64,000 nt of DNA. It comes from a plasmid. Shown piece by piece: positions 4,713 to 28,900 of the stretch. The translations under genes and the position numbers were made by a program. The notes under the pieces were generated by a model. It was not told the DNA's origin and made no database searches. It was given only the letters and a program-made list of their open reading frames with translations. Within the stretch, counting starts at the first letter, position 1. Each line of letters begins with the position of its first letter. The stretch lies in the NCBI RefSeq assembly GCF_054482525.1, contig NZ_JBTHVG010000004.1, one strand, 5' to 3'.

Positions 4713-5765
4713 CTAAGGTTTGTTTTCTTCTTTTCTTATATTTATCTGGTAATCCTTATCAACAATGCCTGCTCTACTGTTTGCATTAATCATTGCTGGT
4801 CTGATCCATATTAGTTTGTTATTTTTCCTGCGAATATGTCCTCTGCGTAAGTGCATCCTTTTCGTCCCACCGGATTTTCCTGTTCCAGTATGATTACTTT
4901 GCACCTTAGTTTCAGACAGTTGCAATACTTTATAAGTATATGAAGGGCGCTTGTTTTTTTCAGGTGGCTGAACTTTACGACCATTTATGAATTTTCTTTC
5001 TGGTTTAGTGCTAAGTGTGACAGGACACACATTTTCGCAATTTAACACGCTACATGCCTGTATGAAAGCCTGTAGTTCATCGCGAGTATCCATAATAATT
5101 TGCGCATATAATCTTTCAATACTTCCCACCTGCTTTATCAAATCATCTTTAAATTCCATGCTTGTTATAAAAGGCTCTGCTTTGAAGTGTGCTGCATTAT
5201 ATTTGGCTACTCCATTCTCTTTTAATGTGTCGATTACAAGCCTGGATGCAGGCAATGTCCTGTCAGGTTCGTATTTAGTGAGTTTGTTGTTATATGGGAA
5301 AAACATTCCACCGACACCAAGAATCCATATTTTTAAATCATCAGACCATGAAACAGGAAGGATAAACACTCCGCCATCAATATAAGTGTTAAGGATTGAA
5401 TTACATCCCGGGATGGGTTCAAAACTCTGTCTGGCCTCCCAGCACAGGGCAATTCTTCTGGATGATGGTGATATATTAAAATCACCTATTTGGGTTTCTA
5501 CATTGTCTTTGAACCATGGTATTTCAAATGTTACAACTGGATATGGTAATCGTGCCAAATCGAAATGCGTCTGGCGGTATTCTTCTGGTTCAATAATATC
5601 GCAGCAGTTCGGTAAGATGAACTTAACACTACTGTCCAGCATATCAATGACCTGACGCATAATATATGATGTAAGAGGTGCATTTGACCTTAATCCTTTT
5701 TCCATGACAGACAGGTCTTTTATGGCTTCCTTAGTGTAATTTAGTGGAGTAATTGTATCTTTCAT
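4713..5765 (-). CDS. Hypothetical protein, AT-rich cargo; C-terminal basic motif shared with 39354..40445 product
   Basis: 350 aa; AT-rich relative to flanks; C-terminal TGKSGGTKRMHLRRGHIRRKNNKLIWIRP. Confidence 0.6.
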   Translation of the reverse strand: MKDTITPLNYTKEAIKDLSVMEKGLRSNAPLTSYIMRQVIDMLDSSVKFILPNCCDIIEPEEYRQTHFDLARLPYPVVTFEIPWFKDNVETQIGDFNISPSSRRIALCWEARQSFEPIPGCNSILNTYIDGGVFILPVSWSDDLKIWILGVGGMFFPYNNKLTKYEPDRTLPASRLVIDTLKENGVAKYNAAHFKAEPFITSMEFKDDLIKQVGSIERLYAQIIMDTRDELQAFIQACSVLNCENVCPVTLSTKPERKFINGRKVQPPEKNKRPSYTYKVLQLSETKVQSNHTGTGKSGGTKRMHLRRGHIRRKNNKLIWIRPAMINANSRAGIVDKDYQINIRKEENKP

Positions 5766-5977: not shown

Positions 5978-6568
5978 TTACGGGACGCTACTTTCATTTA
6001 TCTGTACGCGAACCTCTATTCCTGCGTCATGACAGGCCTGCAGCCACTGCGCCACTTCCAGCGGATCGCCCTCCAGGCGTACCACCCTGCCTTCTTTATT
6101 CCATAACTGCAGACAGGTGCTGCCGTCGAGACGCACCACAAAATCCCCACGGCAGGCCTGATACGTTATGCCGTTCAGCTCCACCGCCAGATCAGTGGCA
6201 GAAGTGCCGTCTGCGGGCAGACCTGCTGCCGGGACCAGCGGCAGTACGACGACTTCTGCCGCACGCTGTTCTGCCCGGAGGCGGTCCTGTTCTGCCAGCA
6301 GCAGAGGCTGTGCCACGGCCCGGCCGGCGTCCGTCAGCTCCACTGCCAGCTGCAGGTTCGGAGCGCGCAGGGTACGCAGCCAGCCGGCATCCTCCAGACG
6401 ACGGCAGGAGGCGCGCAGGTTTGGCCCGTAGACCGGGGCTTCCCCGCTTCGCTCCAGCACCCGTTCTATGTCCCGCGTCAGCACGGGTCCCGGCCGTTTT
6501 TCATCAAGGGCAGCCAGCACAATCAGCACTCTCCGCTGCAGTGGCGACGGTCGGCGGCTCTGAGTCAT
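5978..6568 (-). CDS. Hypothetical protein with putative N-terminal winged-helix DNA-binding domain (GC-rich gene)
   Basis: 196 aa; start overlaps stop of 6568..6822 ORF; high GC; opposite-strand 255 aa ORF is Pro/Arg/Ala-rich and judged spurious. Confidence 0.5.
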   Translation of the reverse strand: MTQSRRPSPLQRRVLIVLAALDEKRPGPVLTRDIERVLERSGEAPVYGPNLRASCRRLEDAGWLRTLRAPNLQLAVELTDAGRAVAQPLLLAEQDRLRAEQRAAEVVVLPLVPAAGLPADGTSATDLAVELNGITYQACRGDFVVRLDGSTCLQLWNKEGRVVRLEGDPLEVAQWLQACHDAGIEVRVQINESSVP

Positions 6569-6822
6569 TAACTGTCACCCTCCGACCAGATGAGTTTTTT
6601 GAGGCGCTGATAATCGGTATCGATGCGTTCCCGGGCCTGTGCGTGATTGTTCTGTGGCGCACCATGAATGGCCAGTTCATACCACAACCACAGCAGAGCT
6701 GAGGCCCTCAGTTCATTGAGGCACCTGGCGCTCTGGCTGTCCAGCCCACATTCACGGATATTTTTTTCCGCTATTCGGGTCAACTGCTCATAGCTGAGTG
6801 AAAACACCCTTTCTTCATCCAT
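6568..6822 (-). CDS. Hypothetical small protein, first gene of a two-gene operon
   Basis: 84 aa; translationally coupled to downstream 196 aa gene; palindromic operator-like sequences just upstream. Confidence 0.45.
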   Translation of the reverse strand: MDEERVFSLSYEQLTRIAEKNIRECGLDSQSARCLNELRASALLWLWYELAIHGAPQNNHAQARERIDTDYQRLKKLIWSEGDS

Positions 6823-6865
6823 CCTGCATGCTCCATCTGATAATGTTCCGACAGCTAAAAATCAT

Positions 6866-6965
6866 ATCATGCATGATTTGTGTGCTCTTGATTTATGATA
6901 ATATCTGATATGGTTTTTTCATCAATGATGAAAATCATATCAGATATGATTTTATGTGTGTTTTT
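6866..6965. promoter_or_regulatory. Cluster of palindromes/inverted repeats (operator-like or recombination site)
   Basis: perfect palindrome atcatgcatgat; inverted repeats atatctgatat / atatcagatat; near-palindrome aaaatcatatcagatatgatttt. Confidence 0.4.
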
Positions 6966-7389
6966 TATTATCATATTATTTGCGTCTTTTCTGCCGCGCA
7001 GATCCGGTTTCCGGCGGTTACGGATCTCCCACTTCCCCCACACAACGCCACCTCCCGTCAGCACAACATGTGGTGCCTGATTCAGCTGCTGATGACACTA
7101 TATGTTGTGTCATCTCCCTGACCTGTGATGCGCCGCGCAGGGGCGGAAAACAGCGATATGATTATTTCCTCAGCGTGATACACTTCCGGAAAGTTGTGAT
7201 ATTCAGGAAAGTCGGATCTGACGGAAGCGGCTCTCCGGTAATTTAACGGCGTGGTTATATGGATGCTTGTTATCATGGTGATGATGATAACGGCATGATG
7301 TTATCAGACGGCGTGACGGTAAGGGCAGTGATGACGGATGACGTTATCGCATGACCGTCCCTGCCCGGAAAAGAAAAAAGGAGTCACCC

Positions 7390-7803
7390 ATGTTTTTTAT
7401 TGAGAATGAAGGTCAGGCTGTCGCCGGAACGGATTACTGGCAGTCTGTACAGGCGCAGGCCGGATATGTCTACCTCAGCTGGAATGCCGGCGCAGCCAGG
7501 CTGCTTGTCCCGGATGCGGCAAAACATTTACTCAGGGAGATGCGGGGGGCTGAGTACGTCATCATCAGTAAGGGAACGCTGGATGGCCGCGATGCGCTGG
7601 AACTGGTATTTGAAGACGGCAGCGATGCGCCGTTCGTGATCCACATGCTGAGTGAGCAGTGCGATCGCCTGCTCCCCGAAAACAACCAGGGCGGGGGTTT
7701 TGTTGTCACCGTCTGGACGCGTGGCGGTAACCAGCTCCGTTATCCGGGAAAGTACCGGGTTGTGGAAAAACTGCCCGACGTTTCCCCGTGGAGTGAACAC
7801 TGA
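7390..7803 (+). CDS. Hypothetical protein encoded immediately upstream of resD
   Basis: start chosen at Met14 of the track ORF, preceded by SD aaggag; stop lies 1 bp before the resD ATG. Confidence 0.5.
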   Translation: MFFIENEGQAVAGTDYWQSVQAQAGYVYLSWNAGAARLLVPDAAKHLLREMRGAEYVIISKGTLDGRDALELVFEDGSDAPFVIHMLSEQCDRLLPENNQGGGFVVTVWTRGGNQLRYPGKYRVVEKLPDVSPWSEH

Positions 7804-7804
7804 T

Positions 7805-8584
7805 ATGCAGCACCTGCCGGCACCGATCCACCATGCCCGGGATGCCGCTCAGCTTCCTGTTGCCATCGATTATCCGGCAGCGCTGGCACTCCGCCAGATG
7901 TCGATGGTTCATGATGAACTGCCAAAATACCTGCTGGCCCCTGAAGTGAGCGCCCTGCTCCATTACGTCCCGGATCTGCGCCGCAAGATGCTGCTGGCCA
8001 CACTGTGGAACACCGGTGCGCGCATTAATGAAGCACTGGCGCTGACGCGGGGGGATTTTTCGCTCACGCCTCCGTATCCGTTTGTGCAGCTGGCCACTCT
8101 GAAGCAGCGGACCGAAAAAGCCGCCAGGACGGCAGGAAGAATGCCCGCCGGTCAGCAGACTCACCGGCTGGTTCCGCTCTCCGACGCCTGGTACGTCAGC
8201 CAGCTGCAGACGATGGTGGCCACACTGAAAATCCCCATGGAACGGCGTAATAAACGAACAGGCAGGACAGAGAAAGCGCGGATCTGGGAAGTGACGGACA
8301 GAACGGTCAGGACCTGGATTGGGGAGGCGGTTGCCGCCGCTGCCGCTGATGGTGTGACGTTCTCTGTCCCGGTCACGCCACATACGTTCCGCCATTCCTA
8401 TGCGATGCATATGCTGTATGCCGGTATACCGCTGAAGGTCCTGCAGAGTCTGATGGGGCATAAGTCCATCAGCTCAACGGAGGTCTACACGAAGGTGTTT
8501 GCACTGGATGTGGCTGCACGGCACCGGGTGCAGTTTTCGATGCCTGAGTCCGATGCGGTGTCTATGCTCAAAAGAATTCCATAA
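7805..8584 (+). CDS. resD: Site-specific tyrosine recombinase ResD (plasmid multimer resolution)
   Basis: start at internal Met (MQHLPAP...) of the track ORF; near-identical over most of its length to the F-plasmid ResD sequence as I recall it; C-terminal ..HTFRHSYA..LMGH.S...YT tyrosine-recombinase motifs. Confidence 0.85.
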   Translation: MQHLPAPIHHARDAAQLPVAIDYPAALALRQMSMVHDELPKYLLAPEVSALLHYVPDLRRKMLLATLWNTGARINEALALTRGDFSLTPPYPFVQLATLKQRTEKAARTAGRMPAGQQTHRLVPLSDAWYVSQLQTMVATLKIPMERRNKRTGRTEKARIWEVTDRTVRTWIGEAVAAAAADGVTFSVPVTPHTFRHSYAMHMLYAGIPLKVLQSLMGHKSISSTEVYTKVFALDVAARHRVQFSMPESDAVSMLKRIP

Positions 8585-8595
8585 GCTCTGACTTT

Positions 8596-8745
8596 TTTAA
8601 ATCCCTTTCGGATATCTCATGGATATATTATCGGTATTTCATATTCTGTTGACATGCAGGACCGGTATAGAGTAAAAAAACATCTATTGAGTACCTCTTG
8701 GATATCCGAAAGGTGTCTTATGGGGGCTTTATGGGTATTACATGT
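8596..8745. repeat. Iterated GGATATC/GGTAT-like repeats upstream of parA (centromere/operator-like)
   Basis: ggatatctcatggatatattatcggtat ... ttggatatccgaaaggtgtc; same motif recurs at 9412-9490 and 9806-9905. Confidence 0.4.
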
Positions 8746-8763: not shown

Positions 8764-9408
8764 ATGCCTGTTATTGCTAATACGCATCCCAAAGGTGGTG
8801 TGGGTAAGACAACTTCATCCGTAAACATTGTTGGTGAAATGAAGTCTGATACAGTTGATCTGGATACTCATACCGGGCTTTCTATCATTCTGGGGCTGAG
8901 ACCTGAAGGAAAAGAAATTTCCGTGAAAGTACCCAAAACAGTGGATGAGTTAATCGAAATTATGACTCCCTACAAGAACAGCGATAAGACGTTACTTATT
9001 GACTGTGGGGGATTTGACTCAGATCTTACCCGTACTGCGATTGCCTTTGCAGACTGCGTTATTGTCCCTTCAAAAGACTCCCTGACTGAACGTATTGGTT
9101 TGATGCATTTTGATGGAGTACTGGACGAAATCAGCTCTATCATGGGGACCGATATAACTGCTCACCTGTATCTCTGTAAAGTTAATCCTAACAAGAAGAA
9201 ATTCCCTAAGCTTGATGCAATCCTGCCATCGTTCAAACATCTGAAGCTGATGAAGAGCCGCATTTCTGCTCGTGCAGAATTTGAGGATGTCATTGAGACT
9301 GGGATGGGAATCACTGAGTCTGTTCATGGGCGCTATTCGGCAGGAGGTAAGGAAGTTATTGCCCTGATCGAAGAAATCAATCATCTGATTGAAAATAACA
9401 AACAGTAA
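8764..9408 (+). CDS. ParA-family partition ATPase (small, type Ib-like)
   Basis: deviant Walker A KGGVGKTT at N-terminus; start at Met23 of the track ORF. Confidence 0.8.
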   Translation: MPVIANTHPKGGVGKTTSSVNIVGEMKSDTVDLDTHTGLSIILGLRPEGKEISVKVPKTVDELIEIMTPYKNSDKTLLIDCGGFDSDLTRTAIAFADCVIVPSKDSLTERIGLMHFDGVLDEISSIMGTDITAHLYLCKVNPNKKKFPKLDAILPSFKHLKLMKSRISARAEFEDVIETGMGITESVHGRYSAGGKEVIALIEEINHLIENNKQ

Positions 9409-9411
9409 GGT

Positions 9412-9490
9412 GTGTCTATTGGGTATCCATATAGTATCCTTTGGGCTTTTAATGGATATCTTTTAAGTATCTAACAAACATCCTGGGTTA
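9412..9490. repeat. GGGTATCC/GGATATC repeat cluster between parA and partner gene
   Basis: gggtatccatatagtatcc ... atggatatcttttaagtatct. Confidence 0.35.
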
Positions 9491-9494
9491 TCTC

Positions 9495-9803
9495 ATGAGC
9501 AAAGCGAAATTTAGTGCACAGGCTGAAAAACTGAAAAACCTGGTGGATTCTGCCAGATTACAAACTTCTTCTTCTGCCGTAACAGCAACAGCCCCGTCTC
9601 AGCCAAATGAAGGTGCAGAGGAAGTTTCAGGTCGTCCCGTGGCTGCCAGGACGAAGGCTAAGAATCTTAAGGCCATACCGCTGTCGTATTTTGAAGCTCA
9701 TGCGGAACTTAAAGCGACCAGTAAAACATCTCTGGATTTTAGCTCATATATTATTGAGGCTATAAGAGAGAAGCTTGAACGTGATGGTGCAATAGGTCAA
9801 TAA
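9495..9803 (+). CDS. Small partition partner protein (ParG/RHH-like centromere-binding candidate)
   Basis: 102 aa immediately downstream of parA; C-terminal ..SLDFSSYIIEAIREKLERD resembles ribbon-helix-helix. Confidence 0.55.
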   Translation: MSKAKFSAQAEKLKNLVDSARLQTSSSAVTATAPSQPNEGAEEVSGRPVAARTKAKNLKAIPLSYFEAHAELKATSKTSLDFSSYIIEAIREKLERDGAIGQ

Positions 9804-10216: not shown

Positions 10217-11197
10217 ATGAAAATCTTTATTGATGATGGTTCTACCAACATTAAACTTGCCTGGTTGGAGGATGGTGACGTGAAAACGTTAATCAGCCCT
10301 AACAGCTTTAAACCGGAATGGTCTTTTAGTTTACTGGATGATGCTGCCCCGGCTAATTACGAGATCGACGGCGAGAAGTTTTCATTTGATCCATTAAGTG
10401 CTGATGCTGTCGTAACGACTGAAACACGCTATCAGTACAGTGATGTGAATGTTGTGGCCATTCAGCATGCGCTACAGCAGACCGGCCTGAAAGCGCAGCC
10501 TGTTGATGTCATCGTCACATTGCCGATCTCTGAATACCTTGACGCCAACAATCAGAAAAATAAGCAAAACATTGAAAGAAAGAAAAAAAATGTGATGCGT
10601 GAAGTACGGGTGCAGGGGAGTGATGCATTTGTTATTCGCAGTGTTTCCGTTCTTCCTGAAAGTATTCCCGCTGGTTTCAGTGTTCTTGCGGGGCTTGAGG
10701 ATGATGAATCCCTTTTGATCGTAGATCTCGGTGGTACAACTCTTGATGTGTCGCATGTTCGTAGCAAAATGACAGGGATTACAAAAACCTGGTGTGATCC
10801 AAATATCGGCGTGTCCCTGATTACATCCGGGGTTAAGGAACAGATGGCTGTACATGCTAATACAAGAGTGAGCTCATTCCAGGCTGACAATATCATTGTG
10901 CACCGTAATGAACCTGACTACCTTTCCCGTCGCATTTATAATGCTGAACAGCGTGAGTCTATCATTAATGTTATCAATGAACGGCAGAAGTTGCTTATTA
11001 AACGAGTTAATGATGTCATCAGCCGTTTCACCGACTATACACATGTAATGTGTGTTGGTGGTGGGGCTGAAATTGTGGCCGAGGCTGTGAAGAACCTGAC
11101 TAAGGTTCCTGATGAGCGCTTTTATCTGAGCTCATCCCCGCAGTTTGATTTAGTCATGGGAATGATAAAAATGAAAGGTGGTGTGACTAATGAGTGA
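10217..11197 (+). CDS. parM: Actin-like segregation ATPase ParM/StbA
   Basis: start MKIFIDDGSTNIKLAW with SD ggaga; strong similarity along its length to R1 ParM as recalled (..DLGGTTLD.., ..GGGAE..). Confidence 0.85.
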   Translation: MKIFIDDGSTNIKLAWLEDGDVKTLISPNSFKPEWSFSLLDDAAPANYEIDGEKFSFDPLSADAVVTTETRYQYSDVNVVAIQHALQQTGLKAQPVDVIVTLPISEYLDANNQKNKQNIERKKKNVMREVRVQGSDAFVIRSVSVLPESIPAGFSVLAGLEDDESLLIVDLGGTTLDVSHVRSKMTGITKTWCDPNIGVSLITSGVKEQMAVHANTRVSSFQADNIIVHRNEPDYLSRRIYNAEQRESIINVINERQKLLIKRVNDVISRFTDYTHVMCVGGGAEIVAEAVKNLTKVPDERFYLSSSPQFDLVMGMIKMKGGVTNE

Positions 11198-11606
11198 TGA
11201 AAATAAATCCAGACGCTGCTCATTTGAACTTTTCCCGGATGAACGGACAGGAGATAAGATAGCAGATGAGCTCATTGCAAATGAAAAACTGAAGGAGCGG
11301 GGACGTTTCATGCGCGCGATGTTAGTTACTGGTGCGGCGTTTGCAGCTATAGATAAACGTCTTCCTTTGCTGATATCGGAGTTACTGACAGAAAATACGA
11401 CTCTGGATGATATTAATAAGGTGATTTCCAGCGTGATACCAGGTGCTTTTTCGGTTGAAAAGAAATTGCTTGAATTACTGGAAAAACAATCTGGTCTCCA
11501 TACGTCTGTGGATTGCAGTACTCCTCCTACAGAGCAGAGTCTGTCGAGAAATGACGGTGAAGACCAGACCAGAAGAAACGCTGAAAATATGTTCGGAGAT
11601 GACTGA
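11190..11606 (+). CDS. parR: ParR/StbB adaptor protein
   Basis: 138 aa overlapping parM stop; N-terminal region resembles R1 ParR. Confidence 0.7.
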   Translation: MSDENKSRRCSFELFPDERTGDKIADELIANEKLKERGRFMRAMLVTGAAFAAIDKRLPLLISELLTENTTLDDINKVISSVIPGAFSVEKKLLELLEKQSGLHTSVDCSTPPTEQSLSRNDGEDQTRRNAENMFGDD

Positions 11607-13957: not shown

Positions 13958-14884
13958 ATGCCAAACTGGTGCTCAAATCGTATGCATTTTTCTGGTGAAC
14001 CGGCACAGATTGCTGAGATTAAACGACTGGCCAGCGGTGCAGTCACACCGCTTTATCGCCGCGCCACAAATGAAGGTATTCAGCTGTTTCTGGCCGGAAG
14101 TGCCGGACTTCTGCAGACCACTGAAGATGTGCGGTTTGAACCATGCCCCGGACTGACGGCTGCCGGGCGTGGCGTTGTATCGCCGGAGAATATCGCGTTC
14201 ACCCGCTGGCTGACATACCTGCAGGACGGTGTACTGCTGGATGAGCAAAACTGCCTGATGCTGCATAAACTCTGGCTGCAGAGCGGTACTGGACAGTGTC
14301 GCTGGGAAGGATTACCGGACGATGTCAGGGATACCATCACCGCACTTTTCACCGCAAAAAGAGGTGACTGGTGTGGCTTCTGGAGTAACGAGGATGTATC
14401 GGTGTGGTGGAACCGTCTGTGTGACAACGTACTGCCGGAAAAAACCATGCCGTTTGACCTGCTGACGGTTCTGCCCACCCGCCTGGATGTTGAAGTGAAT
14501 GGCTTTAACGGTGGTGTTCTGAACGGTGTTCCTTCTGCATATCACTGGTATACGGAACAGTATGGCGTGAAGTGGCCTGTGGGGTATGAGGTGAATATCA
14601 GTAGTCAGGGAGACAACTTCATTCAGGTGGATTTCGACACGCCGTGGTGTCAGCCGGAAAGCGACGTTATTGCAGAATTAAGCCGCCGTTTCAGCTGCAC
14701 GCTGGAGCACTGGTACGCCGAACAGGGCTGTGATTTCTGTGGCTGGCAGTTGTATGAGCGCGGAGAGCTCGTTGATGTGCTGTGGGGGGAACTGGAATGG
14801 TCTTCCCCGACAGATGACGATGAGCTGCCGGAAGTCACCGGACCTGCGTGGATAGTCGACAATGTGGCGCATTATGGCGGATGA
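13958..14884 (+). CDS. Hypothetical leading-region protein
   Basis: start at internal Met (MPNWCSN..) preceded by SD gagaggaga; Trp/Cys-rich. Confidence 0.5.
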   Translation: MPNWCSNRMHFSGEPAQIAEIKRLASGAVTPLYRRATNEGIQLFLAGSAGLLQTTEDVRFEPCPGLTAAGRGVVSPENIAFTRWLTYLQDGVLLDEQNCLMLHKLWLQSGTGQCRWEGLPDDVRDTITALFTAKRGDWCGFWSNEDVSVWWNRLCDNVLPEKTMPFDLLTVLPTRLDVEVNGFNGGVLNGVPSAYHWYTEQYGVKWPVGYEVNISSQGDNFIQVDFDTPWCQPESDVIAELSRRFSCTLEHWYAEQGCDFCGWQLYERGELVDVLWGELEWSSPTDDDELPEVTGPAWIVDNVAHYGG

Positions 14885-15268
14885 AGTATGACGGAGACGG
14901 GCGGGAAACCGCCCGTTTCTTTTCCGACAAAGGATGTCGCCGTGCTCCTCTTTTTACTGCGCCGGCTGACGCGGCGCGGCATAAACGCTGCCTGTGGTCA
15001 GTGTCCCGCGTCCGGCCGGGCACGGGACGGGCGCTTTTACCGCTCCCGGCTGGCATCGGTGACAGTGTACGCCAGCCCGTCGCCCTTTTCTGATGAACGC
15101 CCTTCAAGCCGCTTTCGCGGCATATTCTCGCCGTCAAAAAGACGACGGCTGCGATATTCCACGGTCGGCCTGACCCGTTACCGGACGCGGTGAACAGCCC
15201 ACAGGCAGCGGGGAACGGGCACCACAGGGGTGCCCTCCCGGTGCCCTCTGTAAGAGAAGGAGTTTCGT

Positions 15269-15952
15269 ATGTCCCGTTTTGTCCTCGGTAACTGCATCGA
15301 TGTTATGGCCCGTATTCCTGATAACGCCATTGATTTCATCCTCACCGACCCTCCATATCTCGTCGGTTTCCGTGACCGTTCCGGGCGCACCATCGCCGGC
15401 GATAAAACCGATGAGTGGCTGCAACCGGCCTGTAATGAAATGTTCCGCGTGCTGAAAAAAGACGCGTTAATGGTGAGCTTCTACGGCTGGAACCGCGTCG
15501 ATCGCTTTATGGCCGCCTGGAAAAATGCGGGATTCAGCGTTGTTGGTCACCTGGTCTTCACCAAAAACTACACATCGAAGGCCGCATATGTGGGCTATCG
15601 CCACGAATGCGCCTACATCCTGGCAAAAGGCCGTCCACGTCTGCCACAAAAACCGCTGCCGGACGTGCTGGGCTGGAAATATTCAGGCAATCATCATCAC
15701 CCGACGGAAAAGCCTGTTACCAGCCTGCAACCGCTGATTGAGAGCTTCACACACCCGAACGCAATTGTGCTGGACCCGTTTGCAGGCAGCGGCTCAACCT
15801 GCGTTGCAGCCCTCCAGTCCGGACGCCGGTATATCGGTATCGAGCTGCTTGAGCAGTATCACCGTGCCGGACAGCAACGACTGGCTGCCGTACAACGGGC
15901 CATGCAGCAGGGGGCCGCGAATGATGACTGGTTTATGCCGGAGGCTGCGTAA
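15269..15952 (+). CDS. Orphan DNA N6-adenine/N4-cytosine methyltransferase
   Basis: 227 aa; catalytic DPPY motif (LTDPPYL) near N-terminus, FAGSGST SAM-binding motif near C-terminus; no adjacent restriction gene. Confidence 0.8.
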   Translation: MSRFVLGNCIDVMARIPDNAIDFILTDPPYLVGFRDRSGRTIAGDKTDEWLQPACNEMFRVLKKDALMVSFYGWNRVDRFMAAWKNAGFSVVGHLVFTKNYTSKAAYVGYRHECAYILAKGRPRLPQKPLPDVLGWKYSGNHHHPTEKPVTSLQPLIESFTHPNAIVLDPFAGSGSTCVAALQSGRRYIGIELLEQYHRAGQQRLAAVQRAMQQGAANDDWFMPEAA

Positions 15953-16174
15953 ATGAACTATGCCGGACACGAAAAACTTCGCGCCGAAGTGGCGGAGGTG
16001 GCCAATGCCATGTGCGACCTGCGTACAACCATGAATGAGATGGAGCGGCGGTACAGCTTTAATGCTGACACCCTGCCGGAACGTCTGGTGCGTCAGACGT
16101 TGTTTCGCGCAAACCGCCTCCTGATGGAGGCATATACCGAAATTCTTGAACTGGATGCGTGCTTCAAAGATTAA
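15953..16174 (+). CDS. Hypothetical small protein
   Basis: 73 aa; start abuts methyltransferase stop. Confidence 0.45.
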   Translation: MNYAGHEKLRAEVAEVANAMCDLRTTMNEMERRYSFNADTLPERLVRQTLFRANRLLMEAYTEILELDACFKD

Positions 16175-16186
16175 GGAGGAGACGAA

Positions 16187-16621
16187 ATGTACGGAACATG
16201 CGAAACGCTCTGCCGTGAGCTGGCAGCAAAGTATCCGGGAAACACGCCGCTGATGCTGCTTATCTGGTCCCCGGAAGAGATTCAGGCACTGGCCGACGGT
16301 ATGGAAATTTCTCTGACCGATCATGAAATCAGGACTGTCCTGGCGCACCTGGAGGACATCCCGGAAGACCAGCGGATGGAGTCCGGTATTTCTTCCGCCG
16401 CTGCGATGGAGATTATCAGCAACGTGAGCGAAAACCGCCTGGTGACCGTCTCTGCTGAACTGCTGGCGTCCCTGATTCAGACCGCTGAACAGGCACTGTG
16501 GAAACGTGAATGGGCCGCCCGTGATAACGGCCTTGCCGTCCCGGAATGTGTTACCCGCCGTCAGGCAGTGATTAATCAGGCCCGCACCCTGCTGAAAAAC
16601 AACACACACGAAAACAACTGA
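16187..16621 (+). CDS. Hypothetical protein
   Basis: 144 aa; SD aggaggagacgaaATG. Confidence 0.5.
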
Positions 16622-16671
16622 TGTTATCGCCGCCTGCCCTGCGGGCGGCGATACAGGGAGAACGCTTAATC

Positions 16672-17442
16672 ATGAACAAAACGCTGAATGCACTGGTTTG
16701 TCGTCACGCCCGTAACCTGCTGCTGGCGCAGGGCTGGCCGGAAGAGACGGATGTTGACCAGCGAAATCCGAACTATCCGGGCTGGATCAGCATTTACGTG
16801 CGGCTGGATGCGCCCCGGCTGGCGACGTTACTTATCAACCGTCACGGCGGCGTACTGCCACCGCTCCTGGCCTCCGCCATTCAGAGACTGACCGGAACCG
16901 GGGCGGAACTGGTACTGTCCGGCAGTCAGTGGCAGTCGCTGCCGGTACTTCCGGCAGACGGAACGCAGGTGTCTTTCCCGTATGCCGGAGAATGGCTGAC
17001 CGAAGACGAAATCAGGGCTGTTCTTGATGCGGTGCACGATGCGGTACGAAGCATCTGTTACCAGGTGGCAGAAGATGCGCGGCGTATCCGTGCGGCGCTG
17101 ACCACCACCGGTCAGACGTTGCTGACCCGCCAGACGCGCCGCTTTCGCCTGGTCGTGAAGGAAAGCGATCACCCCTGCTGGCTCGATGAAGATGACGAAA
17201 ACCTGCCCGTGGTGCTCGATGCCATCGTGAACCGGGGAGCACGTTTTTCGTCGGTGGAAATGTACCTGGTCAGCGATTGTATTGAGCATATCCTGTCCAG
17301 TGGGCTGGCCTGCGATGTGCTGCGTATACCCGATGAACCGCCCCGCCGCTGGTTTGACCGTGGTGTTCTGCGGGAGGTGGTCCGGGAAGCCCGGACCGAA
17401 ATCCGCAGCATGGCGGATGCCCTGGCAAAAATCCGGAAATGA
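16672..17442 (+). CDS. Hypothetical protein
   Basis: start at internal Met (MNKTLNAL..) of track ORF 16621..17442. Confidence 0.5.
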
Positions 17443-17507
17443 TGACACTGGCGGGGTAAATCCCCGCCTTTTTCCTGCCGGTCCCCGGACAGAGCACAAA
17501 GGAAGTC

Positions 17508-17842
17508 GCCGCCGGCTCCGCTTTACCCGGCCATGCGGGGCATGGCCTTGTGGTTTTTCAGTTATGTGGCCTCAGCGTCGTGTGCGGGCTGTGCCGTGCC
17601 TCCATCTTAGCCGGGCTGGCGTTGATGCAAGGGTACGCTTCGCCGCTGCGGTCACCCGGTCCCTCCTTCCCGTCTGCCGTGATTTTCCGGTCGTTCACCC
17701 GCTCAGATTTCGCGGTCTCACCCTGCAACTCCCGTCAGCCGTGTGCGTCAGGCTGCGGCTTCCCTTGCGCCCCTGCATCCCCGCCTGTTCGCCCGGCTTT
17801 TATGGAGGCACGGCACCGCCCGGTGTCGCGGAATATGTGAAC
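17508..17842 (+). promoter_or_regulatory. Leading-region repeat family A copy 1 (ssi/Frpo-like single-strand promoter element)
   Basis: about 335 bp GC-rich element nearly identical to 24457-24788; immediately upstream of klcA-like gene. Confidence 0.5.
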
Positions 17843-17858
17843 AACGGAGGAAAACATC

Positions 17859-18284
17859 ATGCAATATGCGAAACCTGTCACTCTGAATGTTGAAGAGTGC
17901 GACCGTCTCTCCTTTCTGCCGTATCTGTTTGGCAACGATTTTCTGTATGCCGAGGCGTATGTGTACGCGCTGGCGCAAAAAATGATGCCGGAATATCAGG
18001 GAGGCTTCTGGCACTTCATCCGCCTGCCGGACGGTGGCGGTTACATGATGCCGGATGGCGACCGTTTCCACATGGTGAACGGTGCAAACTGGTTTGACCG
18101 TACCGTGAGTGCTGATGCCGCAGGCATCATCCTTACCTCCCTTGTGATTAACCGCCAGTTGTGGCTGTACCACGACAGCGGGGATGCAGGACTGACCCAG
18201 CTTTACCGGATGCGCGATGCGCAGTTGTGGCGTCACATCGAATTTCACCCCGAATGCAACGCGATTTACGCGGCTCTGGACTGA
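17859..18284 (+). CDS. klcA: KlcA/ArdB-family anti-restriction protein
   Basis: 141 aa; recalled resemblance to KlcA/ArdB; sits directly behind repeat A. Confidence 0.6.
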
Positions 18285-18330
18285 TTAACGGACGGGGCGG
18301 CAATGCCGCCCCTGTAAAGGAGACGAGAAC

Positions 18331-18753
18331 ATGTACTGTACTGTTAAAGAAATTATCCGCGAAGTGCTGGATACAGACGTGCCGGACAGTGAATGCGTTT
18401 TTGCCGTGGTGCTGACCCGTGGGGATGTGCGTCACATAGCCCAGGACTGGAACCTGTCAGACGATGAGCTGGAAACCGTCATGCAGCGGCTGGACAATGC
18501 CTTTGAGCATGGTGCGGATGTCAGCGTTGTTCACGACGTTGTTCGTGAACTGATGGAAGAAAAGCGCGCCAGCCGTCATGTGACAGTCCCGGCGGTGATG
18601 CTGGAAAAAGTGATGGCGCTGGCAGGCAGTGAAATGAAGCGCCTGTATGCCGTCGGGAGTGAGAACGGGGGCGACGGTGACGCATTCGTCAGGGAGGAAC
18701 GCGAAGCAATGGACGTTGTGTTACAGGCGCTGGACGGGGAGACGATGTCATGA
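18331..18753 (+). CDS. Hypothetical leading-region protein
   Basis: 140 aa; SD aaggagacgagaacATG. Confidence 0.5.
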   Translation: MYCTVKEIIREVLDTDVPDSECVFAVVLTRGDVRHIAQDWNLSDDELETVMQRLDNAFEHGADVSVVHDVVRELMEEKRASRHVTVPAVMLEKVMALAGSEMKRLYAVGSENGGDGDAFVREEREAMDVVLQALDGETMS

Positions 18754-18941
18754 ATATCAGCACAGAAACCCGCGAAATTCTGCGTAATTACAGGGCCGTG
18801 ATTAATGCGCGGCGTCGTGAAATGGGGCAGAAACCGCTCACCACCGCGCAGATTGTTGATGAAATCTGCGATTTTGTGGCGAATCAGCAGGCGGTTTTCC
18901 TGGGCGGTCACTACATCTTACAGGGCAGCAGAAACAGGTGA
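18750..18941 (+). CDS. Hypothetical small protein
   Basis: 63 aa; overlaps upstream stop. Confidence 0.35.
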   Translation: MNISTETREILRNYRAVINARRREMGQKPLTTAQIVDEICDFVANQQAVFLGGHYILQGSRNR

Positions 18942-18974
18942 TACAGGGGCAGGCGGTGGAGGCCGCCTGTCAGC

Positions 18975-19700
18975 CCGCGCGAAAACCCCTGGCAGGCTGA
19001 CGCCTGCCGGAAACGCGGGGTGCAGCGCCTGCGGCGCTGCCGGCCCGGCTTTCCGGTCAGAAGGTAGTGTATGGCTGTATGCCAGGAACAGATGTGATAT
19101 TCCGTGACACTGTCACCGTTTATGGTTGTCTTTTATTGCGCCCACTTCGGCTCCCGGCTGCCTGGCGGCATCCGGTCGTCAGGCCCGACTCCGACAGGCA
19201 GCTGCTGGCGCACCCGCCAGTCTCCGCCGAACCCGCTGGCGCGGTTTCGGGCTGCCGCTACGGTCCGATGCGTGAAAACCCGGGCTTGCAGCGACCGTTA
19301 CGGTCGCGCCGCCCCTGTCGCGCCGTGACCTGCGCTCCCTGCACACCTGACGGTGTGTGAGGAAACTGCGCCTGATGGCGCAGCAGTCCTCCCTCCTGCC
19401 GCCACCCCTGCGGCCTGTTTCCCGCTGTGGACTTTCCGGGGGGCAGACGTAACCCCCTCCCGTTCCATCTGTCCAGGGTGAGATGCACCGGCCACAAAAT
19501 TTTTAGCCATGAACCCGGCAAAAAATTTTGCGTCCGCCCCCGGACAGCTGTCCCGTGAGGCGGTAAACGGGCCCCCATCGGAAAGGTCCACTGCGGGGAG
19601 AAACCCCGAAGAAGTGGACGGCAGGAGGAGCTTTCGCTCCTCTGAAGGGGCACATGAACGTCCCGTCGCCGGTATCCGGTTTATCTCACATCTTTCAGTC
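18975..19700 (+). promoter_or_regulatory. Leading-region repeat family B copy 1 (ssi/Frpo-like) upstream of ssb
   Basis: about 700 bp element with long near-identical stretches at 25355-26030 and partial copy at 28546-28895; ends at SD caggaggtt of ssb. Confidence 0.5.
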
Positions 19701-19711
19701 AGGAGGTTCTT

Positions 19712-20239
19712 ATGAGTGCACGTGGTATCAACAAGGTCATCCTCGTCGGGCGTCTGGGCAATGATCCGGAAGTCCGTTACATCCCCAACGGGGGCGCAGT
19801 GGCAAACCTGCAGGTGGCCACATCAGAAAGCTGGCGTGACAAACAGACGGGGGAGATGCGGGAGCAGACGGAATGGCACCGCGTGGTGCTGTTCGGCAAG
19901 CTCGCGGAAGTGGCAGGTGAATATCTGCGCAAGGGTGCGCAGGTCTACATCGAAGGTCAGCTTCGCACCCGTAGCTGGGAAGATAACGGTATCACCCGTT
20001 ACGTCACTGAAATTCTTGTTAAGACCACGGGCACCGTGCAGATGCTGGGACGTGCACCACAGCAGAACGCTCAGGCGCAACCGAAGCCTCAGCAGAATGG
20101 GCAGTCACAGAGTGCTGACGCGACGAAAAAAGGTGGCGCGAAAACGAAAGGCCGTGGACGTAAGGCCGCGCAGCCAGAGCCTCAGCCGCAACCGCCGGAG
20201 GGGGAGGATTACGGGTTTTCAGACGACATCCCGTTCTGA
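19712..20239 (+). CDS. ssb: Single-stranded DNA-binding protein
   Basis: 175 aa; OB-fold N-terminus, Gln/Pro-rich linker, acidic tail ending DDIPF. Confidence 0.9.
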
Positions 20240-20296
20240 TCGGGCTGACTGTGACAACCGCCCCGCCCTGTGCGGGGCATCACCGGAGATATGAGG

Positions 20297-20530
20297 ATGA
20301 GCGAATATTTCAGAATACTTCAGGGACTGCCGGACGGCTCCTTTACCCGCGAACAGGCGGAAGCCGTTGCCGCACAGTACCGGAACGTCTTTATCGAGGA
20401 TGATCAGGGAACGCATTTTCGCCTGGTTGTCCGTCAGGATGGCACGTTGATCTGGCGCTCCTGGAATTTTGAGGACGGTGCCGGGTACTGGATGAACCAG
20501 TACATCAGGGATTTCGGGATTCTTAAGTAA
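20297..20530 (+). CDS. Hypothetical small protein
   Basis: start at internal Met (MSEYFRIL..) of track ORF 20270..20530. Confidence 0.45.
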
Positions 20531-20582
20531 GAGAGGTGCCGGACGCGCAAACGTCCGGCAGGACATAAGCAATTATAAGGGG

Positions 20583-22547
20583 ATGATTATGCCTGTAACG
20601 AAGTGTGAACCAGAAACCACCCGCAAAGCAAGCCGTAAATATGTAAAAACGCAGGAAACTGCACTGTCTGCCCTGCTGGCGCAGACGGAGGAAGTGAGCG
20701 TGTCGCTGGCCTCACTGATTAAGTCACCGCTGAATGTGCGCACGGTGCCGTATTCTGCGGAGTCCGTCAGCGAACTGGCTGAGTCCATTAGGGGCGTTGG
20801 CCTGCTGCAGAATTTGGTCGTGCATACCCTGCCTGGTGACCGTTACGGTGTCGCCGCAGGTGGTCGCCGACTGGCTGCACTCAACATGCTGGCAGAGCGT
20901 GGCATCCTTACGGCTGACTGGCCTGTACGCGTGAAAATTATTCCGCAGGAGCTGGCGACTGCCGCATCAATGACTGAAAACGGTCATCGTCGGGATATGC
21001 ACCCTGCCGAACAGATTGCCGGATTCCGTGCAATGGCGCAGGAAGGCAAAACGCCTGCACAAATCGGTGATTTGCTGGGCTATTCGCCCCGCCATGTCCA
21101 GCGAATGCTGAAACTGGCTGACCTTGCGCCTGTCATCCTCGATGCGCTGGCAGAAGACCGCATCACCACAGAGCACTGTCAGGCGCTGGCGCTGGAGAAC
21201 GACACCGCGCGTCAGGTGCAGGTGTTTGAAGCCGCCTGCCAGTCGGGATGGGGCGGTAAACCGGAAGTACAGACCATTCGTCGTCTGGTGACCGAAAGTG
21301 AAGTGGCGGTGGCGGGGAACAGTAAATTCCGCTTCGTGGGGGCTGATGCCTTCTCGCCAGACGAACTGCGCACCGATTTGTTCAGCGACGACGAGGGTGG
21401 CTATGTGGACTGCGTGGCGCTCGATGCCGCCCTGCTGGAAAAACTCCAGGCTGTCGCAGAGTTCCTTCGGGAAGCCGAAGGCTGGGAATGGTGCGCCGGA
21501 CGCATGGAGCCTGTCGGTGAGTGCCGTGAGGATGCCGGAACATACCGCTGTCTGCCGGAGCCGGAAGCGGTGCTGACGGAGGCAGAAGAAGAACACCTGA
21601 ACGAACTGATGACGCGTTACGACGCGCTGGAAAACCAGTGTGAGGAATCCGACCTGCTGGAAGCAGAAATGAAGCTGATTGACTGCATGGCGAAGGTCAG
21701 GGCGTGGACGCCGGAGATGCGTGCCGGAAGTGGCGTGGTGGTGTCCTGGCGTTATGGCAACGTATGTGTCCAGCGTGGTGTGCAGTTGCGCAGTGAAGAT
21801 GACGCGACTGACGACGCTGACCGCACGGAACAGGTGCAGGAGAAAGCGTCAGTGGAGGAAATCAGCCTGCCGTTGCTGACGAAAATGTCCTCAGAGCGCA
21901 CGCTGGCAGTCCAGGCGGCACTCATGCAGCAGCCGGACAAATCTCTGGCACTGCTGGCATGGACGCTCTGCCTGAATGTGTTTGGCAGCGGGGCGTACAG
22001 TAAACCAGCACAAATCAGCCTGGAATGTGAACATTACTCGCTGACCAGCGATGCGCCATCGGGGAAGGAAGGTGCCGCATTCATGGCGCTGATGGCAGAA
22101 AAAGCCCGTCTTGCTGCCCTGTTACCGGAGGGATGGTCACGGGACATGACGACATTCCTGTCACTCAGTCAGGAGGTGCTGTTATCCCTGCTCAGCTTCT
22201 GCACTGCGTGCAGCATCCACGGTGTTCAGACCCGTGAGTATGGTCACACGTCACGCAGTCCGCTGGACTCGCTGGAAACCGCTATCGGCTTTCACATGCG
22301 CGACTGGTGGCAGCCGACAAAAGCAAACTTCTTCGGACACCTGAAAAAGCCGCAGATTATCGCAGCCCTGAATGAGGCAGGACTGTCCGGTGCCGCACGG
22401 GACGCGGAGAAGATGAAGAAAGGCGATGCCGCTGAACATGCAGAGTTCCATATGAAAGACAACCGCTGGGTGCCTGGCTGGATGTGTTCACCACGTCCAC
22501 AGACGGATGCCACTGAACGCGCCGATAACCTGGCTGATGCCGCCTGA
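20583..22547 (+). CDS. ParB/Srx N-terminal domain (ParB-like nuclease) protein of the leading region
   Basis: 654 aa; ParB-like N-terminal domain, HTH-like segment. Confidence 0.65.
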   Translation: MIMPVTKCEPETTRKASRKYVKTQETALSALLAQTEEVSVSLASLIKSPLNVRTVPYSAESVSELAESIRGVGLLQNLVVHTLPGDRYGVAAGGRRLAALNMLAERGILTADWPVRVKIIPQELATAASMTENGHRRDMHPAEQIAGFRAMAQEGKTPAQIGDLLGYSPRHVQRMLKLADLAPVILDALAEDRITTEHCQALALENDTARQVQVFEAACQSGWGGKPEVQTIRRLVTESEVAVAGNSKFRFVGADAFSPDELRTDLFSDDEGGYVDCVALDAALLEKLQAVAEFLREAEGWEWCAGRMEPVGECREDAGTYRCLPEPEAVLTEAEEEHLNELMTRYDALENQCEESDLLEAEMKLIDCMAKVRAWTPEMRAGSGVVVSWRYGNVCVQRGVQLRSEDDATDDADRTEQVQEKASVEEISLPLLTKMSSERTLAVQAALMQQPDKSLALLAWTLCLNVFGSGAYSKPAQISLECEHYSLTSDAPSGKEGAAFMALMAEKARLAALLPEGWSRDMTTFLSLSQEVLLSLLSFCTACSIHGVQTREYGHTSRSPLDSLETAIGFHMRDWWQPTKANFFGHLKKPQIIAALNEAGLSGAARDAEKMKKGDAAEHAEFHMKDNRWVPGWMCSPRPQTDATERADNLADAA

Positions 22548-22598
22548 TGAACAACCACACCGCCCCGCCGGAGACGGGGCGGCAGAGGGAGAAATACG

Positions 22599-23036
22599 AT
22601 GATGAATACCGAACTGACACTGAATGCCCTGCAGTCCATGAATGCCCAGGAATATGAAGAAATCCGTGCTGCGGGAAGCGATATGCGCCGTAATCTCACT
22701 CACGAGGTGATGCGTGAAGTGGACGCACCAGCTAACTGGATGATGAACGGAGAGTATGGCAGCGAGTTCGGGGGCTTTTTCCCCGTCCAGGTTCGTTTCA
22801 CGCCAGCCCACGAACGTTTCCACCTGGCATTATGTTCGCCGGGAGACGTCTCTCAGCTCTGGATGCTGGTTCTGGTGAATGGTGGTGGACAGCCTTTCGC
22901 CGTCGTTCAGGTGCAACATATCTTCACGCCTGTCGCGATCAGTCACACGCTGGCGCTTGCCGCGACACTGGATGCGCAGGGATACAGTGTTAACGACATC
23001 ATCCATATCCTGATGGCAGAAGGAGGTCAGGCATGA
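22599..23036 (+). CDS. psiB: Plasmid SOS inhibition protein PsiB
   Basis: 145 aa; near-colinear similarity to F PsiB as recalled (..[13 protein letters not shown].., ..[35 protein letters not shown]..). Confidence 0.9.
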
Positions 23037-23752
23037 GCGCACGTTCACGGGCACTGATCCCCCTCAGCGCAGAACAACAGGCCGCCATGCAGGCGGTGGC
23101 TGTCACAGAACAACGTCGTCGTCAGGGACGCACACTTTCAGCATGGCCTTATGCCACCGCTTTCTTTCGCTGCCTGAATGGCAGTCGCCGGATTTCGCTG
23201 ACCGATCTCCGCTTTTTTGCCCCTGCGCTGACGAAGGAGGAATTTCATGGCAACCGTCTCCTGTGGCTGGCTGCCGTGGATAAACTGATTGAAAGTTTTG
23301 GGGAAGTCTGTGTTCTTCCCCTGCCATCCGATGCGGGGCACCGTCTGTTCCCGTCCGTGCCTTTTCGTGAAGGTGAGCGTCGTCGTCAGAAAACCACGCT
23401 GACAGAGCAGAAATACAGCCGCCAGCGGGAACGTGAGGCAGAACGACGGGAACTGGAATACCAGACATGTTTTGCTCAGGCGCAGATTGACCTTGCGTTT
23501 CATACTCCCGCCACGGTCGGAAGCTGGTTGTCCCGCTGGTCTGGTGTTGTTGAGGAGCATGATCTGGAAACGATTTTCTGGGGGTGGTGCGGGCGTTTTC
23601 CGTCACTGTCATCATTTGACCGGTTTTTCTGGCAGGAGGAACCACTCTGGCGGCTGATTTTTGAAGCCGGTGAGGCCGGTCGTGGTGCACCGATACAGGT
23701 ACGTGCACTTGAGCAGTGGATGATCCCGAACAAGCTGGAGAACGTAATATGA
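23033..23752 (+). CDS. psiA: PsiA
   Basis: 239 aa; overlaps psiB stop. Confidence 0.75.
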
Positions 23753-24345
23753 TGAAATCAGACGAAAAATACCAGGTTCCCGCGTGGATGCGACCTCTGT
23801 TGCCGTTGCTCTGCAACACCGGGGGGAACGATCCGGAAGAACTGCTGAATGATACAGAAACCACTGCCAGTGCGAATGTTGTCCGTTATGTACTGATAGT
23901 TGCTGTGCGGTCGCAGGTTGATCTGCTGCAGCTTCTGTACAGGAAAGGGCTGTTGCGCACAGAGATACCAGGTGGCTTTTCACCGGAAGAAGCGCAGGCA
24001 CTCCTGGATAATCTGGTGCGCAGCCATATCAGCAAGGCGCTGTCGGGCGAGCGAATGGCAGCCCGTGACAGAAATGCCGATCTGGCCTGGATTAGACAGC
24101 AACTGGTCGATGCCGCCTGGTTTGTCCGTGCCACACTGGAAGCGCATGGGATGAGCGTCGGAAATGAGAGTCCCCCTGCTCCGCCGGAGACAATGCCGGA
24201 CATACAGACACGGGAACTGGTGATGTTGATCAAGCGACTGGCATCATCGCTGAAAGCGGTGAAACCGGACAGTTGTGTGGTGCGTGAAGCGCAGGACTGG
24301 CTGCGCGACAGAAAACTTGTGGATATCACAGATATTCTCCGGTGA
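23749..24345 (+). CDS. Hypothetical protein
   Basis: start at internal Met overlapping psiA stop. Confidence 0.45.
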   Translation: MMKSDEKYQVPAWMRPLLPLLCNTGGNDPEELLNDTETTASANVVRYVLIVAVRSQVDLLQLLYRKGLLRTEIPGGFSPEEAQALLDNLVRSHISKALSGERMAARDRNADLAWIRQQLVDAAWFVRATLEAHGMSVGNESPPAPPETMPDIQTRELVMLIKRLASSLKAVKPDSCVVREAQDWLRDRKLVDITDILR

Positions 24346-24456
24346 ACCAGGCATGTATATTTTACGCAGGGACATGCCGGTCATGATCGTTTCGTTCCAG
24401 GGGTGGTCTGGAGATCATGCGGTGTGCTCCCTGCTCTCGCCGGAATAAGGACGTCG

Positions 24457-24788
24457 CCGCCGGCTCCGCTTTTACCCGGCCATGCGGGGCATGGCCTTGT
24501 GGGTTTTCAGTTATGTGGCCTCAGCGTCGTGTGCGGGCTGTGCCGTGCCTCCATCGTAGCCGGGCTTCTGCGGGCGGGTTGCAAGGTAAGGTGAACCGCT
24601 GCGGTCACCCGGTCCCTCCTTCCCGTCCGCCGTGATTTTCCGGTCGTTCACCCGCTCAGATTTCGCGGTCTCACCCTCCAACTCCCGCCAGCCGTGTGCG
24701 TCAGGCTGCGGCTTCCCTTGCGCCCTTGCAACCCTGCAGGCCCGGCAAAGATGGAGGCACGGCACCGCCCGGTGTCGCAGAACATGTG
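24457..24788 (+). promoter_or_regulatory. Leading-region repeat family A copy 2 (ssi/Frpo-like) upstream of ardA
   Basis: near-identical to 17508-17842. Confidence 0.5.
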
Positions 24789-24806
24789 ACTATGGAGGAT
24801 TCGGGA

Positions 24807-25307: not shown

Positions 25308-25354
25308 TTTACTCCCCCGCTCCGGCGGGGGTATGGCCTGCCAGGCCGCCGGAA

Positions 25355-26030: not shown

Positions 26031-26035
26031 TTTTC

Positions 26036-26470: not shown

Positions 26471-26562
26471 AAAAAGGCAGGGCGATAAACCCTGCCTCTC
26501 TCCGCCGGCGCTTCCCCGCCAGGAAGTCCGGCATCTCAATCACTATCTATGGAGATTATGCC

Positions 26563-26829
26563 ATGAGACCATCAATTATCTTCGCAACCGCCGAGTATGT
26601 AAAGCGTCTGCGTGAAGAGTGCCTGCGGGAGAATAAACCCCTGCACCGCCATACCCGCTTCAGACGTCAGGAGCTGGCACAGGATGAGATTAACCCGGAC
26701 GTCCTGGCGATGAGCGGCCATATCGCCAGACGCTGCAGTGAGCAGAAGCGGGTGCGTATCCCCGCTATGAAAGTCAGCGAATGGGGCCACCTGCTCCGCG
26801 CGCTTGAAATTGAGCGGGTCTGCCACTGA
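26563..26829 (+). CDS. Hypothetical small protein
   Basis: start at internal Met (MRPSIIF..) preceded by ggag. Confidence 0.4.
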   Translation: MRPSIIFATAEYVKRLREECLRENKPLHRHTRFRRQELAQDEINPDVLAMSGHIARRCSEQKRVRIPAMKVSEWGHLLRALEIERVCH

Positions 26830-27784: not shown

Positions 27785-27796
27785 TGAGAGCATCAC

Positions 27797-28895: not shown

Positions 28896-28900
28896 ACAAT

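Follow-up and report, generated by a model that had tools for sequence, protein, structure and literature searches.

The DNA analyzed here is a stretch of 64,000 nucleotides from a plasmid (NCBI RefSeq assembly GCF_054482525.1, contig NZ_JBTHVG010000004.1; "the window" below), in which a gene for a protein of 137 amino acids (7390-7803) stands directly in front of resD, the gene of a ResD-type tyrosine recombinase. A preliminary description of the sequence had proposed that the small gene is co-expressed with resD and may have an accessory role in multimer resolution. We now consider it quite probable that the 137-aa gene is cargo and not a resolution factor, as it occupies a slot whose contents vary among plasmids that otherwise share the locus. 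The fuller explanation that we favor, with somewhat better than even confidence, makes the gene both the promoter-proximal cistron and a passenger of a resD operon, encoding an autonomous accessory of mobile elements concerned with establishment or conflict. The window itself is an IncI-type plasmid and, over the stretch compared, matches base for base the start of conjugative plasmids of the IncI-gamma/K1 type, such as NZ_CP093549.1.

Exchangeable content in front of resD

At least 5000 plasmid records were found to carry the resD locus, and 1155-1160 the 137-aa gene. In a BLAST comparison of the region 6800-8700 with plasmid sequences, about 1080 of the matches listed align over the full query; the remainder mostly align as two segments, one upstream of about 7275 and one made up of resD from about 7850, with different content between them. 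The flanks in these two-piece matches, in which thousands of IncF and other plasmids have resD without the 137-aa gene, are about 90-95% identical at the nucleotide level. In the alignments the slot has its left breakpoint at about 7275-7290 and its right breakpoint at about 7851, some 15 codons into resD, homology of resD with the other variants restarting only there, at about residue 16. The following contents of the slot were seen, the locus labels being our own:

IncI (the window): the 137-aa gene
IncFIA/FIB, F type (L060): ccdA and ccdB, then the integrase
ColV-type IncFIB (L061): genes for proteins of 116 aa and 229 aa
pESI (L062): genes for proteins of 104 aa and 259 aa
Leclercia plasmid (L057): a 229-aa gene, a member of the 137-aa family (69% identity) and a 275-aa gene, then ResD (85%)
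Enterobacter pYK16-mcr-10 (L068): genes of 123, 150 and 114 aa and a family member (74%), then ResD (88%); this slot sits behind a diverged copy of the upstream rfsF-type block

The last cargo gene is separated from resD by 0 nt in the F type, 44 nt in pESI and 92 nt in pYK16, and overlaps it by 4 nt in the ColV type and by 11 nt in the Leclercia plasmid. As every variant thus ends at resD or no more than 92 nt from it, the arrangement fits resD as the distal gene of an operon with an exchangeable proximal part. No similarity was found between slot cargo proteins of different kinds, save for the two 229-aa proteins (34% identity), nor did BLAST show any similarity of the 137-aa protein to the CcdA or CcdB of the F-type locus.

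The two 229-aa proteins (L061, 2271-2960, and L057, 5261-5950) match the PADLOC defense candidate PDC-S67, with E values of 1e-17 and 2e-35, and from their sequence look membrane-anchored. These matches suggest that the interval between rfsF and resD collects defense-type cargo.

Association of the small protein with ResD

Loci of the 137-aa family were gathered from viral contigs (32) and genome contigs (18), which gave about 45 non-redundant loci, and the flanking open reading frames (ORFs) were clustered. ResD lies directly downstream of the family gene only in the IncI-type loci of this set. In one other locus an unrelated integrase is found about 750 bp away, and no family of downstream neighbors recurs in four or more groups of the non-redundant loci. 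The plasmid contexts seen, namely Rep3, Pantoea, Desulfosarcina, Polaromonas, Pseudomonas and E. albertii, have no adjacent recombinase. From the other side, the clusters of ResD orthologues, with thousands of members each, far outnumber the 1808-member cluster of the 137-aa protein. The two proteins do not, then, occur together wherever either is found, whether one goes by the plasmid records (at least 5000 with resD, about 1160 with the small gene) or by the 45 or so family loci.

The Leclercia and Enterobacter plasmids also have a family gene and resD at the same locus. Their small proteins are 69-74% identical to that of the window and their ResD proteins 85-88%, and because both genes are so closely related to the IncI genes, these pairings do not count as independent associations; the arrangement probably shares ancestry with that of the IncI plasmids. 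The components of a ResD/rfsF system are present in the window as the ResD-type recombinase beside the rfsF-type block, that is, in the neighboring gene and not in the 137-aa ORF.

Natural deletion variants

Two groups of natural 126-aa variants, P0003 (44 members) and P0005 (48 members), lack residues 71-81 or 68-78, and what has been removed is the invariant ELxFEDGSD motif. The codons for this motif are bracketed by a direct repeat, which makes a deletion hotspot and accounts for one of the two 33-nt in-frame deletions:

7589-7630, plus strand: 9-bp direct repeat GCGATGCGC, at 7589-7597 and 7622-7630, 33 nt apart

Both a 126-aa variant (L066, 1501-1881) and a ResD identical to that of the window are found in pECAZ147_2 (NZ_CP018993.1), a complete conjugative plasmid. 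Since motif-deleted variants persist with intact ResD, this circumstantial evidence suggests that the activity of the 137-aa protein is not required for maintenance of the plasmids that carry the deletion. Altogether four natural deletion variants stay in frame (P0003, P0005, P0009 and P0013), and shorter forms also exist.

The gene, its junction with resD and the rfsF-type block

The features of the locus are as follows:

7000-7275: conserved block of the rfsF/oriV1 type upstream of the variable slot, delimited by alignment with other plasmids
7061-7076: palindrome GCACAACATGTGGTGC, possibly a second rfsF-type site, from the repeat search
7091-7114: perfect inverted repeat GATGACAC - 8 nt (TATATGTT) - GTGTCATC, candidate rfsF core, from the repeat search
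7269-7348: IncI-specific region with four GTTATC/GATAAC motifs, from the repeat search
7378-7383, plus strand: Shine-Dalgarno sequence AAGGAG of the 137-aa ORF, 6 nt before the ATG at 7390
7390-7803, plus strand: the 137-aa ORF ("yedA" in R64-style annotation; WP_021513973.1), a member of a large unannotated family whose proteins are about 140 aa long
7790-7807, plus strand: junction, with GGAG at 7790-7793, TGA at 7801-7803, T7804 and the resD ATG at 7805-7807
7805-8584, plus strand: ResD-type tyrosine recombinase of 259 aa (Pfam PF00589, Phage_integrase, E 2e-18)

The 137-aa ORF directly upstream of resD, with its stop one nucleotide before the resD ATG, had been read correctly from the sequence. 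It can be taken for a real gene and not a chance ORF because it has 275 close relatives, many invariant columns in their alignment and a confident AlphaFold2 model. It runs on the plus strand from the ATG at 7390 to the TGA at 7801-7803; an alternative reading of 150 aa from the ATG at 7351 was set aside, as in the alignment the homologues begin at the position of M7390. The small gene is named yedA in LC567053.1, and the recombinase is labeled resD, "resolvase ResA" or site-specific integrase in records of identical plasmids.

A single base, T7804, separates the stop of the small gene from the start of resD, and the GGAG at 7790-7793, which sits inside the 3' end of the 137-aa ORF, could serve as the ribosome-binding site of resD. 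The junction is compatible with translational coupling, which we infer from this layout, and a sequence scan found no terminator-like site between the two genes on the plus strand. Given a spacing of 1 nt on one strand, the internal GGAG and the lack of a terminator-like site, the 137-aa gene is probably expressed together with resD, so that this part of the preliminary claim remains plausible, while the accessory role in resolution that went with it is not supported, for the reasons weighed below.

The block at 7000-7275 is about 90% identical to the region before ccdA of an IncFIA plasmid and aligns also with the ColV-type IncFIB and pESI loci. In IncI1 plasmids, rfsF stands immediately before the yedA-resD gene set, at the boundary of a variable region (PMC8004404), and F-type plasmids have the gene order rfsF, oriV1, ccdAB, resD, with mention of two rfsF sites (PMC4398462). 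Assigned by its position and by this literature, the block fits the rfsF type. Two of the four locus variants show single-base changes in the inverted repeat at 7091-7114, whose arms and spacer are otherwise conserved; core sites of tyrosine recombinases usually consist of two arms around an A+T-rich spacer. The palindrome at 7061-7076 has the CACAACAT..GTG motif of that site in inverted orientation and is a possible recombination site in its own right. The region of GTTATC motifs lies beyond the end of homology with the other slot variants and includes, at 7269-7291, an inverted repeat GTTATCAT-7 nt-ATGATAAC with perfect 8-bp arms. Family genes outside IncI plasmids do not have the motif in front of them, and for this reason the idea that the 137-aa protein is an autoregulator was dropped.

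The protein and its family

The 275 close relatives, all annotated as hypothetical, came from a word-indexed search. An exhaustive profile search extended the family to 1135 cluster representatives at E<=1e-3 and 856 at E<=1e-10, both counts being of representatives of clusters at 50% identity; most are stand-alone proteins of about 140 aa. Identity within the family is 35-60% across phyla. The IncI copies are 96-100% identical at the protein level in more than 1000 plasmids, and the exact 137-aa sequence occurs on at least 1000 contigs. Among 59 aligned relatives, eleven columns are invariant (P41, G62, E71, E75, P81, D92, R93, G101, W109, G120 and P129) and many further polar residues nearly so; the invariant acidic and histidine residues suggest a binding or catalytic site. 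An AlphaFold2 model made with the family alignment as input (mean pLDDT 89.9, pTM 0.86) has eleven strands and two short helices, and gave no significant structural match in the PDB or BFVD. A hand count gives 18 acidic and 12 basic residues for the protein, and reading the sequence by eye, without a predictor, no signal peptide or membrane segment was seen. The family as a whole is large and strongly conserved; its mostly beta-stranded, apparently cytoplasmic proteins are encoded on plasmids and on prophage-like elements across many bacterial phyla.

That no family was recognized in the preliminary description holds up: Pfam, NCBIfam, PADLOC, PHROGs and the PDB sequences, the last searched with the single sequence and with a profile, gave no family for the 137-aa protein or for 91 diverse relatives, the latter having only scattered matches at chance level. 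A match of one relative, P0049 (139 aa), to DUF6404 was rejected as a family signal, as it lies in a chimeric N-terminus: the first 50 or so residues are DUF6404 and continue in frame into residues ~50-137 of the IncI protein, the joint presumably marking a rearrangement in some plasmid. One informative case was found among the longer "fusion" relatives, P0172, in which the family domain is joined to DUF4262. P0124 and P0131 have an N-terminal domain in common, and P0124 and P0162 a C-terminal one; apart from the DUF4262 of P0172, these extra regions have no Pfam match. All four may be true fusions or merged gene calls.

Genomic neighborhoods of the family

In 10 of the 45 non-redundant loci the family gene comes directly after a PAPS-reductase/DUF3440 gene (about 410 aa) and a ParB_N gene on the same strand, and in eight groups there is an SNF2 helicase further upstream. 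A Pfam scan of 112 pooled neighbors mostly gave no match; the scattered matches were to phage integrases, Mom, a Dam-type methyltransferase, SSB, a UmuD-like peptidase and phage portal, terminase and tail proteins. Among plasmids, the Rep3 relative is near ssb, H-NS and an FtsK-like gene, the Desulfosarcina relative belongs to a row of small genes on one strand, together with a DUF4942 methyltransferase gene and ssb, the Pseudomonas relative is near a DUF4942 gene and that of Polaromonas pPNAP02 near an ABC-three-component system. Relatives occur also on Pantoea IncFII-type plasmids and, in E. albertii, on a phage-plasmid-like record.

The prophage arrangement recurs as a block (L003, 50-5780, and nine other loci, e.g. 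L008, L018, L028, L034, L041, L043 and L046) with the order: a protein of about 400 aa, the SNF2 helicase, small ORFs, the PAPS-reductase/DUF3440 gene, the ParB_N gene and then the family gene. A PADLOC scan of these prophage neighbors returned generic helicase, PAPS-reductase and methyltransferase domains only, and no defined system.

In the window, the 137-aa gene is oriented like the leading-region genes (methylase, antirestriction, ssb, psiB, psiA and ardA), though it lies about 22.6 kb from oriT (near 30.3 kb) and is separated from them by imp and par genes.

Interpretation

In the picture we favor, enterobacterial plasmids have in common a module in which a slot of variable content lies between an rfsF-type site block and resD; what the slot holds differs by lineage. 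The two genes of the window would be transcribed together, the 137-aa cistron first and resD last, so that the position in the slot would supply transcription to the cargo gene. A ribosome ending at 7803 might re-initiate at 7805, helped by the GGAG at 7790-7793, in which case expression of resD would depend on the cargo cistron. The 137-aa protein itself would act independently of ResD, perhaps binding a conserved ligand or host protein through an acidic surface motif (E71, E75, D76, D79, H85, E89, D92 and R93).

That its function lies in conflict or establishment is a tentative proposal, which we think somewhat more likely to be wrong than right. It is hinted at by the company of its relatives, which in prophages and plasmids includes DNA-modification, helicase, methyltransferase and ssb genes, by the slot elsewhere holding a toxin-antitoxin pair and a defense candidate, and by the gene being oriented like the leading-region genes of the window. 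A more specific version, rather doubtful as it stands, is that of an undescribed family, with a fold not seen in solved structures, that serves in the conflict between host and element, perhaps inhibiting a conserved immunity component of the host or a signaling molecule, or acting as a sponge for it, with the rfsF-resD interval as an exchange hotspot. If this were true, the interval would be a small hotspot for the swapping of conflict modules, among them ccdAB, the PDC-S67 candidate and the 137-aa family.

A number of observations weigh against the explanation we prefer. A consensus scan of the plus strand found no consensus sigma-70 promoter upstream of the 137-aa ORF. The family gene stands beside or near ResD in three enterobacterial plasmid lineages, and a functional link to ResD specific to these lineages is conceivable. 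The argument for conflict or establishment comes solely from neighborhood patterns, and these are heterogeneous, most neighbors lacking any family match. An identity of 35-60% across phyla is unusual for fast-evolving anti-defense proteins. No known or candidate anti-phage defense model of PADLOC-DB 2.0 matches the protein or its 91 relatives, the family is absent from PHROGs, with no tie to a known defense or anti-defense system, and no relatives were found in 50,697 GenBank phage genomes, unlike the IMG/VR viral contigs with their 32 family loci. Finally, the truncated and deleted variants may be signs that IncI plasmids can do without the gene or that it is decaying there.

The accessory role had a natural appeal: a protein encoded so tightly against resD, and paired or nearly paired with it also in Leclercia and Enterobacter, might help in building or controlling the ResD-rfsF synapse, perhaps as an architectural protein by which resolution is made selective, and the GTTATC repeats just upstream could be its binding sites. 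We now regard this as very improbable. Orthologues of ResD, at 85-95% identity, are found in thousands of plasmids behind ccdAB or unrelated genes, without the 137-aa gene; among the 45 or so family loci only those of IncI type have ResD directly downstream, most members having no recombinase nearby; the Leclercia and Enterobacter near-pairings involve close relatives of both genes and are not independent; and the GTTATC motif does not lie upstream of relatives elsewhere. In-frame deletions of the invariant core motif coexist with identical, intact ResD in complete conjugative plasmids, and structure prediction, which had been proposed as a check, gave a confident model in which no fold of a DNA-binding or recombinase-related kind could be detected. 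We know of no such accessory factor in descriptions of ResD/rfsF resolution in F. The same slot in F-type plasmids holds the post-segregational killing pair ccdAB (PMC4398462), and the 137-aa gene fills it exactly, which raises the alternative of a stability or addiction-type module that has replaced ccdAB, acting on a host target such as gyrase or the replication or division machinery to the disadvantage of plasmid-free or multimer-carrying cells. Strong conservation would fit a conserved host target. What makes this unlikely, if less so than the accessory role, is that there is a single gene with no partner antitoxin, that BLAST, Pfam and NCBIfam showed no similarity to CcdA, CcdB or any toxin family, that relatives lie in prophage early or accessory regions and plasmid leading-like regions and not beside antitoxin-like genes, and that loss of the motif is tolerated.

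It could also be argued that the ORF serves mainly as a leader cistron, translation through it feeding ribosomes to resD or contributing to autoregulation of the operon, with the activity of the protein secondary or lost in IncI plasmids. The stop and start 1 nt apart and the GGAG for resD inside the ORF agree with this, as do the four deletion variants that keep the frame and the fact that no slot variant ends more than 92 nt from resD. However, the near-identity of the IncI copies (96-100% in more than 1000 plasmids), together with the strong conservation of the family where there is no resD, argues for a function at the protein level, and the preference for in-frame deletions may be an artefact of listing protein clusters. 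We give the leader cistron a small chance, close to that of an addiction module.

Flanking genes

Just to the left of the rfsF-type block, on the minus strand at 5978-6822, are ydeA (196 aa) and ydfA (84 aa), which overlap by one base and have a G+C content of 59-65%, against 35-45% nearby; ydeA gave weak matches only, to an AbiEi-type winged helix and to phrog_19460. A 350-aa ORF at 4713-5765, also on the minus strand and with about 38% G+C, is hypothetical in all annotated records seen and has no match in PADLOC or PHROGs, the two libraries tried. Downstream of resD are two partition-type modules back to back (8764-9803 and 10217-11606), a ParA-like ATPase with a 102-aa partner followed by ParM/StbA with StbB; at the same place in the F-type and pESI loci the ParA-like pair is oppositely oriented. 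The leading-region run extends on the plus strand from about 13980 to 30500, toward oriT and nikA (30455), and comprises DUF1281, a DNA methylase, a KlcA-type antirestriction gene, ssb, a large ParB-like gene, psiB, psiA and ardA, as well as an Rpn-family nuclease and a DUF4942 protein.

Comparison with known systems

Leading-region and establishment genes (ardA, klcA/ardB-type, psiB, ssb and orphan DUF4942 methyltransferases) resemble the 137-aa gene in being small, borne by mobile elements and in the same orientation, with cytoplasmic products, and three other plasmids have relatives of the 137-aa gene close to ssb or DUF4942 genes. The 137-aa gene differs in its distance of some 22.6 kb from oriT, with the par and imp genes in between, and its product has no similarity to these families in sequence or fold and is not known to act against restriction or the SOS response. 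The IbrA/IbrB-like pairs of PAPS reductase-DUF3440 and ParB_N genes in prophages precede the family gene on the same strand in 10 of 45 loci, whereas no such genes adjoin the 137-aa ORF in the window.

The "yedA-resD" of plasmids of the R64/ColIb-P9 type is the same locus, about 1100 records of IncI-type plasmids having it at 96-100% protein identity. No function for yedA was found in the literature, where most matches to the name concern an unrelated gene next to tetA, and the plasmid used in an IncI1 pESBL transposon-sequencing study is without the yedA-resD region. IncI-type plasmids are major carriers of resistance genes, and the 137-aa gene, near-unchanged in more than 1000 sequenced plasmids, is without an assigned function; so large a conserved family, with a confident model and no structural match, is a reasonable target for structure determination and for defense and anti-defense screens.

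The closest known system is the rfsF-oriV1-ccdA-ccdB-resD locus of the F plasmid (RepFIA region), which has the same rfsF-type block, an orthologous resD (90-95% identity) and upstream genes that end immediately before it. The slot of the window differs in holding one 137-aa gene in place of a two-gene toxin-antitoxin pair, and two small genes with CcdA and CcdB folds were not found there; the first 15 or so codons of resD and about 110 bp before the cargo gene are also specific to the variant. Swappable cargo in the slot that ccdAB occupies in F shifts attention from resolution to establishment, stability or defense-related phenotypes, and would make the rfsF-resD interval a place where plasmids exchange small accessory modules.

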